From: a virus
Reading direction: 5' to 3' (one strand)
DNA length: 11,552 bases
Virus genome (UHGV): UHGV-1585826
Under the pieces are notes generated by a model. It did not search any database, was not told where the DNA came from, and worked only from the letters and a program-made list of their open reading frames with translations. The translations under genes and the position numbers were made by a program. Shown here piece by piece: positions 1,206 to 1,344 of the stretch (positions are counted from its first letter, which is position 1; each line of letters opens with the position of its first letter).

Positions 1206-1231
1206 AACCCCGTCATCGTACGGGGTTTTTT
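1206..1231 (+). terminator. Rho-independent terminator downstream of portal gene
   Basis: GC-rich stem CCCCGT (1208-1213) / ACGGGG (1220-1225) with a 6-nt loop CATCGT, extendable by two A-T pairs, followed by TTTTTT (1226-1231) then GTTT. Confidence 0.75.
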
Positions 1232-1240
1232 GTTTCCGGA

Positions 1241-1289
1241 GATAAGCGTCCCGGGAGCGGTGCGCTTATTCGCGGGGGCAGCGATAAGC
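1241..1289 (+). repeat. Three copies of an (G)ATAAGC(G) heptamer in the portal-scaffold spacer: two direct, one inverted
   Basis: GATAAGCG at 1241-1248, its reverse complement CGCTTAT at 1263-1269, and GATAAGC again at 1283-1289. The 14-nt spacer between the inverted copies contains the palindrome CCCGGG. Function unknown; could be an operator-like site or an RNA stem-loop. Confidence 0.35.
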
Positions 1290-1344
1290 CTTATTTACTC
1301 AACCATTCGGATCTGTCCGATAAACAGACCATGCGGAGTTATTT

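Follow-up and report, generated by a model that had tools for sequence, protein, structure and literature searches.

The translational operator of phage T4 gene 43, as Andrake and co-workers in 1988 and Tuerk and Gold in 1990 are said to have found, is a 5-base-pair (bp) hairpin with a specific 8-nucleotide (nt) loop that adjoins the Shine-Dalgarno sequence. Synthesis of the P22 scaffolding protein gp8 is reportedly autoregulated post-transcriptionally, according to work by Casjens and co-workers between 1978 and 1985, and to our knowledge no cis site has been defined for this autoregulation. The N-leader of lambda carries nutL together with an RNase III hairpin, and T7 has intercistronic RNase III sites. 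The put RNA of HK022, which lies between the early promoter and the terminators that it suppresses, has two long stems and a triplex, binds the zinc-binding domain of the beta' subunit and makes RNA polymerase terminator-resistant (PMC9378689). Here we analyze a stretch of 11,552 nt from virus genome UHGV-1585826 (the window), which represents the late (head) region of a 933W-like Shiga toxin (Stx) phage of the Sepvirinae; its positions 1–2351 are 91–99% identical to 194 phage records. Comparative analysis shows that the spacer between the portal gene and the homologue of 933W gene L0115, which occupies the position of a scaffold gene, encodes a conserved, covarying, strand-specific structured 5′ leader RNA that is tied to the L0115-family gene. 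Judged from sequence, this leader is a widespread and apparently undescribed cis-regulatory RNA motif, which likely controls the scaffold-position gene.

The leader is composed of a terminator-like hairpin (T), a long irregular hairpin (H2) ending in an invariant CGC and a small hairpin (L), followed by the Shine-Dalgarno sequence and the start codon (Table 1). This layout was found upstream of every L0115 homologue examined. Two sets of relatives were compared, namely, 22 distinct versions of positions 1000–1600, derived from 51 loci, and a distant set of L0115 homologues collected down to ~32% identity. Among the close relatives, the region 1205–1403 has only 8 variable columns out of 199, versus 33 of 192 at positions 1013–1204 and 28 of 187 at positions 1404–1590. 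The five changes within the spacer are all compatible with the fold: they affect the length of the T-run, convert U-G to C-G at 1234 and A-U to G-U at 1242, fall within an internal mismatch at 1250 or alter the length of the G-run at 1274. The distant homologues come from Citrobacter, Yersinia, Brenneria, Pectobacterium, Photobacterium, Aeromonas and Oceanisphaera, with Salmonella also among the protein hits. All distant leaders contain a terminator-like hairpin, a hairpin with complementary arms of differing sequence and the motif CGC-NN(N)-RGRC-AGCGATA(C/A). The element spans phages of at least four bacterial orders (Enterobacterales, Vibrionales, Aeromonadales and the Alteromonadales type), with protein identity falling to ~25%. 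Each L0115-homologue locus searched carries a single element, which lies immediately upstream of the gene, and the whole 933W genome has one copy. A portal homologue precedes the element in 20 of 20 distant loci tested. The distance between portal and element ranges from 150 to ~570 nt, and inserted open reading frames (ORFs), promoters and extra terminators lie between the portal gene and the terminator; no insertion between the element and the L0115-type gene was found in the loci examined.

Folding of positions 1188–1360 with RNAfold yields the terminator hairpin, a long hairpin at ~1231–1280 and a third hairpin just before the Shine-Dalgarno sequence (z = −2.4 versus shuffles). An earlier note on this DNA had proposed such a folding check and had reckoned with the case that no stable structure exists beyond the terminator; stable hairpins are predicted there, and they are conserved. 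The RNAalifold consensus for a MAFFT alignment of 57 distinct 68-nt sequences, which is independent of model fitting, also predicts H2, with 10 of 16 pairs changed on both sides. In an alignment of 59 distinct sequences fitted to a covariance model, a procedure that favours the structure, 93.4% of the cells of the 16-pair version are paired, and 10 of the 16 pairs (88 cells) have changes on both sides; none of 500 shuffles reaches the covariation score and slid controls are 32–57% paired. For a 20-pair version, the same sequences give 91.3% paired cells and 12 pairs (116 cells) with changes on both sides, again with 0 of 500 shuffles reaching the score and with slid controls at 34–53%. The covariance model (R1) has exactly one strong match per locus on the + strand (48–80 bits), versus 12–27 bits on the minus strand. 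Three truncated or diverged copies score 34–38 bits, and no second element was found over the window. H2 is rich in G-U pairs, which would be A-C mismatches on the other strand, which marks it as an RNA structure of the + strand rather than a palindrome in DNA.

The conserved core of the leader is formed by the CGC at the base of the hairpin, two nucleotides and the 4–5-bp hairpin L. The 8-nt loop of L, which in the window can also be written AGCGAUAA, is AGCGA(U/A)A(C/A), with little or no variation among 17 distinct core sequences. The stem of L is GGGC/GCCU in enterics and the Pseudoalteromonas type, AGGC/GCCU in L152 and its relatives, AGAC/GUCU in Photobacterium, GGGC/GUCC in some Pectobacterium-type loci (L064), GUCAU/AUGAC in Vibrio phage D80 and GUCAU/AUGGC in a metagenomic relative of D80 (L362). 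Across the 17 cores, 88% of the cells are paired and four of the four pairs are changed on both sides, versus 26–56% in slid controls. In the Pseudoalteromonas-type contig group, the proteins of which match Pseudoalteromonas and Rheinheimera entries, a short hairpin replaces H2, and CGCAAGGGCAGCGATACGCCT is kept, differing from the enteric CGCATGGGCAGCGATACGCCT at one of 21 positions; between 933W and this type, the capsid protein is 52% and L0115 33% identical. D80-type Vibrio phages, with an L0115-like protein ~25% identical to that of E. coli, have a 5-bp hairpin closed by GCG/CGC in place of the long H2 and keep the loop in a wholly different stem; a scan of viral contigs with the D80 protein returned one further locus. 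The upper stem of H2 is thus missing in two lineages, where a hairpin of 4–8 bp remains, suggesting that it is dispensable and that the conserved function resides in the CGC-plus-L core. The bases of the 5′ strand of the L stem serve a second time as 3′ strand in the lowest four H2 pairs, making L and basal H2 alternative pairings; the conformer bearing L lies 2–3.6 kcal/mol above the minimum free energy (MFE) in enteric and Photobacterium examples. H3, the third hairpin, is restricted to Enterobacterales-type leaders and is absent from the Aeromonas and Photobacterium types. One of its pairs covaries between lineages (CUGU/ACAG to CUAU/AUAG), the stem has CUC/GAG in L061, and the Pseudoalteromonas type, like enterics, has a further hairpin between L and the Shine-Dalgarno sequence.

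We tentatively propose that L and the base of H2 form a putative sequence-specific binding site, a translational operator or leader, bound by a conserved protein of the phage head module, a reading that we hold as a serious possibility, if short of probable. A conserved macromolecule would recognise the L loop. The spacing agrees with control of translation, since in leaders devoid of H3 hairpin L ends shortly before the Shine-Dalgarno sequence (4 nt in D80, 6 nt in Photobacterium and ~12 nt in Aeromonas). Of the systems compared, the T4 gene 43 operator seems the nearest in layout: both have a short hairpin (5 bp in T4, 4–5 bp in L) with an 8-nt loop at one site per genome, and in the D80, Photobacterium and Aeromonas lineages L is immediately 5′ of the Shine-Dalgarno sequence. 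Unlike in T4, a terminator and another conserved hairpin come before L, the two sites are not similar in sequence, L of the window is 44 nt away from the Shine-Dalgarno sequence with another hairpin in between, and a binder in the L0115 leader is only putative. Binding of a protein at L, which adjoins the ribosome-binding site on its 5′ side or is moved close to it by H3, would determine how often translation is initiated. The leader would alternate between forms in which L is hidden or displayed, a switch made possible by the competition between the lowest four H2 pairs and the L stem. T would insulate the leader from unmodified polymerases, whereas in lytic growth the Q-modified polymerase would read through it. 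The earlier note had considered an RNA structure controlling translation of the scaffold; the conserved + strand structure in the 5′ leader and its geometry agree with this suggestion, and the control itself we infer.

By analogy with the P22 scaffold, the L0115-family product itself would be the most economical candidate for the binder, under autogenous control. As in P22, the gene is located between a P22-type portal gene and a capsid gene, and in both cases free scaffold is supposed to hold down its own synthesis. The parallel with P22, already drawn in the earlier note, holds as an analogy only: the P22 portal–scaffold spacer is 13 nt long, R1 has no match in the P22 head region and hhalign detects no relationship between the L0115 family and gp8 (probability 0.2%), so that ‘scaffold’ is a positional label. 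A bolder version, which we regard as unlikely, is a new class of riboregulator that couples the synthesis of the scaffold, and perhaps of the capsid protein, to the state of head assembly, with a head-module protein, be it the L0115 product or another conserved one, binding the invariant AGCGAUAC loop, flipping the leader between the extended-H2 and L-displaying forms and thereby setting translation of the scaffold-position gene. Apart from the lack of homology to gp8 and the bias of the model-fitted alignment, several observations weigh against an operator bound by a head protein. Pfam, NCBIfam and PDB searches found no recognisable RNA-binding domain in the L0115 family, and the very label of scaffold is an assignment by gene position and a low-confidence helical model. 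The invariance of the loop across proteins that are 25–33% identical suits a partner from the host, or a head protein that changes more slowly, no less well than the fast-evolving L0115 product. The Aeromonas-type L stem pairs only after a register shift (GGG...CCC), and H3 is half-deleted in one lineage (L149). In the window and other enterics, L is separated from the Shine-Dalgarno sequence by 44–50 nt including H3, and occlusion of the ribosome-binding site in the window would accordingly need H3 or tertiary packing.

The earlier note had seen the spacer as a terminator followed by three copies of an ATAAGCG heptamer, direct and inverted, possibly an operator for a protein. All three copies are located where it had placed them. 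On comparative evidence, copies 1 and 2 are the two arms of the upper stem of H2, and copy 3, part of which lies in the loop of L, is a coincidence of the E. coli lineage. Both strings are over-represented in the window (ATAAGCG, five occurrences versus 1.18 expected; GATAAGC, six versus 1.07; 0 of 200 shuffles in each case), which is weak evidence because the extra copies lie within coding regions, whose codons are not kept by the shuffle. That the copies are DNA or RNA sites for a repressor or activator would account for their number and for this excess, yet it is very improbable and already contradicted by the comparative data. Copy 1 reads GGTAAGCG in most Stx phages (89 loci, versus ~37 with GATAAGCG); elsewhere, copies 1 and 2 vary freely and are replaced by unrelated sequences that remain complementary to each other with many G-U pairs, contrary to what is expected of half-sites in DNA, and they are absent from the Pseudoalteromonas-type and D80-type lineages. 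Copy 3 is not kept as a repeat: it is GATACGC in nearly all other lineages, GCGATACGCC or similar outside E. coli and Shigella, and reads GATAAGC only in the E. coli lineage, where the loop ends in A and GCC follows. A three-segment attenuator with alternative 1:2 and 2:3 pairings was also rejected, since the 2:3 hairpin (1264–1269 with 1284–1289) is confined to the E. coli lineage.

The main rival is a module for processing and stability of the mRNA, somewhat unlikely in our estimate. The late RNA would be cut in the U-rich strand between T and H2, or inside H2, with T as the 3′ protector of the portal-side fragment and H2 as the 5′ protector of the scaffold/capsid-side fragment, thereby uncoupling scaffold and capsid mRNA levels from those of terminase and portal. 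This would address the stoichiometry problem raised by the earlier note, that scaffold is needed in greater amounts than portal, and it agrees with the conserved order of hairpin, U-rich strand and hairpin and with the size of H2 in the window, which with ~20 pairs and internal mismatches is that of an RNase III substrate. Like the lambda N-leader and the T7 sites, the L0115 leader has a long imperfect hairpin in a phage polycistronic RNA, upstream of a ribosome-binding site and beside a putative protein-binding motif. However, no conserved RNase III-site length of about two helical turns (~20 bp) was found: the 20 pairs of the window have no counterpart in Pseudoalteromonas- and D80-type leaders, which lack the long upper stem, and RNase III cleavage therefore cannot be the conserved function. 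In addition, T and H2 are ~20 nt apart in Yersinia-type leaders, and a generic stabiliser leaves the invariant 8-nt loop, the invariant CGC and the covarying L stem unexplained. The leader also differs from that of lambda in lacking boxA. A search for a lambda-type nut site (a CGCUCUUA-like boxA followed by a boxB hairpin with a GAAAA- or GACAA-type pentaloop) found boxA nowhere in the invariant part; CGCUUAUUC, located in the H2 arm of enterics, is base-paired and lacks conservation in other lineages, and a GACAA-type loop occurs only in H3 of some Enterobacterales. Less probable is an element of transcription elongation, in which the nascent two-hairpin RNA, or the non-template DNA, binds RNA polymerase or recruits an elongation factor and confers processivity in the manner of put or ops. 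Two adjacent stem-loops of ~60 nt at the head of a structural operon of >15 kb in a lambdoid phage suit this model, the host polymerase as a strict partner would explain invariance over four bacterial orders, and relatives carry a promoter and an immediate terminator just upstream, as at 933W pR′. The likeness to HK022 put lies in the two adjacent stem-loops (~60–70 nt) of a nascent lambdoid-phage RNA and in a host partner that is, or for the L0115 leader would be, conserved across gamma-proteobacteria. By contrast with put, the leader follows the adjacent terminators instead of lying between a promoter and them (terminators further downstream were not examined), and its second hairpin has only 4–5 bp. 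R1 finds nothing at E ≤ 10 in the whole HK022 genome, which carries putL and putR; the motif is unlike ops (GGCGGTAGnnTG), 933W already has Q for its late operon, and the tight spacing to the Shine-Dalgarno sequence in the minimal lineages favours translation. More improbable again, we think, is that the invariant loop pairs with a conserved host or phage small RNA (sRNA) that regulates the scaffold-position gene in trans. The leader has an exposed invariant 8-nt loop on a covarying stem, close to a ribosome-binding site, as is usual for sRNA or kissing-loop targets, and many relatives encode a short terminated transcript just upstream. Yet no consistently complementary partner was found among these short RNAs and the terminator loops, the complementarity of which, compared by eye, is patchy and lineage-specific, and the E. 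coli lineage has no upstream short transcript. The patchy complementarity of the loop to terminator loops, upstream short transcripts and 16S ribosomal RNA is not conserved and was discarded.

Other readings of the spacer were likewise rejected. The invariant motif does not contain a sigma-70 or sigma-54 promoter: no conserved −10/−35 elements or GG/GC spacing were seen by eye, and a promoter scan finds none there. A conserved peptide from the small ORF at 1230–1355 (41 amino acids) is ruled out by indels and compensatory changes in relatives. Long-range pairing of the 3′ arm of T with codons 8–11 (1221–1231/1367–1377) is not kept in Citrobacter or other lineages. Similarity of positions 1110–1229 to RsmY (27.3 bits, versus a gathering score of 57) and a sub-threshold Rfam match to isrJ are both driven by the terminator and were judged not to be real.

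Comparison with described RNAs returned no counterpart of the leader. Against Rfam 15, the window has no match at the gathering score; at E ≤ 10, positions 1100–1450 have nothing over 1232–1291 except for one chance snoRNA match, and ten diverse loci gave nothing at E ≤ 0.1. A literature search on the motif sequence, sRNAs of the Stx-phage late region, P22 scaffold autoregulation and phage RNA motifs did not find a description of the motif or of the spacer. The Pas sRNAs of prophages of enteropathogenic and enterohaemorrhagic E. coli are encoded close to Q, the lysis genes and the esterase gene rather than at the portal–L0115 spacer, a region that is not mentioned by Tree et al. (2014).

Table 1. 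Coordinates in the window of the leader RNA, the heptamer copies and the flanking features.
Feature	Position	Strand	Basis
Portal gene, 3′ part	21–1187	+	PF16510 P22_portal, E = 4e-71; matches portal genes of 933W-like phages
Terminator-like hairpin T	1204–1235; stem 1204–1213/1220–1229, loop 1214–1219, T-rich tract 1226–1235	+	Top terminator hit of window scan; in MFE fold
H2, long irregular hairpin	1232–1279; 5′ strand 1232–1253, loop GGAG 1254–1257, 3′ strand 1258–1279	+	MFE fold, RNAalifold, covariation
Heptamer copy 1, GATAAGCG	1241–1248		
Heptamer copy 2, CGCTTAT	1263–1269		
Heptamer copy 3, GATAAGC	1283–1289		
Conserved core	CGC 1271–1273, RGRC 1276–1279, AGCGAUA(C/A) 1280–1287		
L, small hairpin	1276–1291; stem GGGC 1276–1279 with GCCT 1288–1291, 8-nt loop AGCGATAA 1280–1287	+	Comparative pairing
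H3, third hairpin region	1307–1328; UCUGU/ACAGA stem 1312–1316/1324–1328, loop CCGAUAA	+	MFE fold
H3, alternative hairpin UCGGA/UCCGA	1307–1311/1316–1320		
Shine-Dalgarno GGAG and ATG start of downstream gene	1335–1347; GGAG 1335–1338, ATG 1345–1347	+	Sequence read
933W L0115 homologue (scaffold-position gene), fused at ~2346–2351 to 3′ end of another gene	1345–2460	+	phrog matches
Second terminator-like hairpin, sequence-related to T, outside leader element	2492–2518; hairpin 2492–2511	+	Terminator scan

The terminator that the earlier note had recognised between portal and scaffold was recovered. Hairpin T has arms GGAACCCCGT and ACGGGGTTTT (ten pairs, five of them G-C) around the 6-nt loop CATCGT, followed by T6-G-T3, which fits the architecture of an intrinsic (Rho-independent) terminator, and it is invariant among close relatives except for the length of the T-run. 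In distant relatives, a hairpin with a U-run of unrelated sequence occupies the same position. A strict scan for a hairpin plus T-run within 85 nt upstream of the CGC is passed by 85 of 98 distinct contexts; most of the 13 that fail show imperfect stems by eye. A terminator ahead of a gene in high demand is less puzzling than had been claimed: Q-modified polymerase reads through terminators in lambdoid phages, late transcription of the 933W type is Q-antiterminated, and the 933W annotation includes Q, pR′ and qut, so T is compatible with a high demand for scaffold. As also noticed earlier, T and the second terminator of the window have similar loops; 14 of their 18 stem-loop positions agree, and one pair is compensatory. 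A terminator of the type CCCGG-YCAUYGYG-CCGGG-U7 recurs at several places in relatives (L156–L159, L168, L235, L258, L300 and others), sometimes directly upstream of the leader. The two terminators are thus plausibly related, and the recurrence would fit a reused terminator cassette, in line with the duplication hinted at before.

Most lineages other than E. coli have a good sigma-70-like promoter (TTGCAx, 17 nt, TAnnnT) straight after the portal stop codon, found in 48 of the 98 contexts (e.g. L058 at ~1240–1330, L059, L060, L062, L067 and L071). A terminator follows ~30–55 nt past the expected start site, and often there is a second one before the leader. This arrangement matches the pR′-qut-terminator region of 933W (L364, 20666–20748) and points to an additional late promoter of the Q type, or to a gene for a very small RNA, ahead of the scaffold and capsid genes. 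The E. coli, Citrobacter and Salmonella lineages are devoid of this promoter. The gap between the portal gene and the terminator/leader is also a hot spot for inserted small genes (morons) in various lineages, including an ORF of ~85 amino acids (aa) in L057 and L063, an opposite-strand ORF in L064, a 240-aa ORF in L248 (5558–6280) and inserts in L356 (3696–3992) and L357 (3001–3992). On the 5′ side of H3, at 1307–1315 and at the same place in enteric relatives, there is a GATC (Dam) site within the invariant TCGGATCT, and TCGGA-TCTR-TCCGA is a DNA palindrome as well as the alternative RNA hairpin to H3. In a Pectobacterium jejuense prophage remnant (L073, 1335–1395), a deletion runs from inside the invariant motif, after GGGCAGC, into the L0115 coding region, which is decay of the element in a dead prophage.

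The start of the downstream ORF at 1345 is identical to that annotated in 933W and POCJ13. In intact phages, L0115 is located between the portal gene and an N4-gp56-type major capsid gene (TIGR04387), an order seen in 933W, POCJ13, L248 and D80. Residues 1–335 of the product match phrog_479, of unknown function, and residues 314–371 match phrog_601; the L0115 homologue has no Pfam, NCBIfam or PDB match. Its AlphaFold2 model, which is of low confidence (predicted local distance difference test 65, predicted template modelling score 0.26), consists largely of helices, with disorder in an acidic stretch at the N terminus. The conserved island of the spacer runs on through the first ~20 codons of L0115 (1345–1403), with three singleton changes in 59 nt among the 22 distinct close relatives, and synonymous sites are conserved too; either a recombination block or a constraint acting on the RNA of the initiation region could lie behind this.

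The window is a deletion derivative, in which the L0115 homologue is joined in frame to the 3′ end of a homologue of 933W L0133 (phrog_601). The gene that contributes this 3′ end normally precedes a giant gene, and ~14 kb of capsid and tail genes have been removed. The junction at ~2346–2351 is absent from all complete E. coli genomes of the collection, and the exact 371-aa fusion protein is encoded on at least 24 contigs from independent samples, indicating a genuine recurrent defective element and not an assembly error. The giant gene (2529–10880) is an ORF of 2783 aa with the domains LPD38, LPD5, LPD1 and MuF_C (‘large polyvalent protein’), homologous to 933W L0134 and ~95% identical to Stx2a phage copies. 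One 1.7-kb contig labelled Xanthomonas pisi (L055, NZ_JPLE01000158.1) encodes a fragment of L0115 that matches the protein of the E. coli phage at 93% identity and is probably contamination of the Xanthomonas assembly.

While the flanking proteins fall to 25–50% identity, the 20-nt RNA core is essentially frozen and the stems change by compensation only, which argues for a functional RNA. The element heads the scaffold and capsid genes, the dosage of which relative to portal is a classic assembly problem, and the operon concerned is the late one of Shiga-toxin phages, in which phage yield, and with it the spread of the toxin, is affected by how much head protein is made. One hairpin with eight loop bases offers a small, defined target for control of the scaffold level, a question dating back to the P22 autoregulation work of the 1980s, and the covariance model can be used for annotating this head module in prophages and viromes. 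If the riboregulator reading is true, scaffold autoregulation in a tailed phage would for the first time have a defined cis-acting site, and this site would be conserved over a range that extends from Stx phages to marine phages of Vibrio and Pseudoalteromonas.

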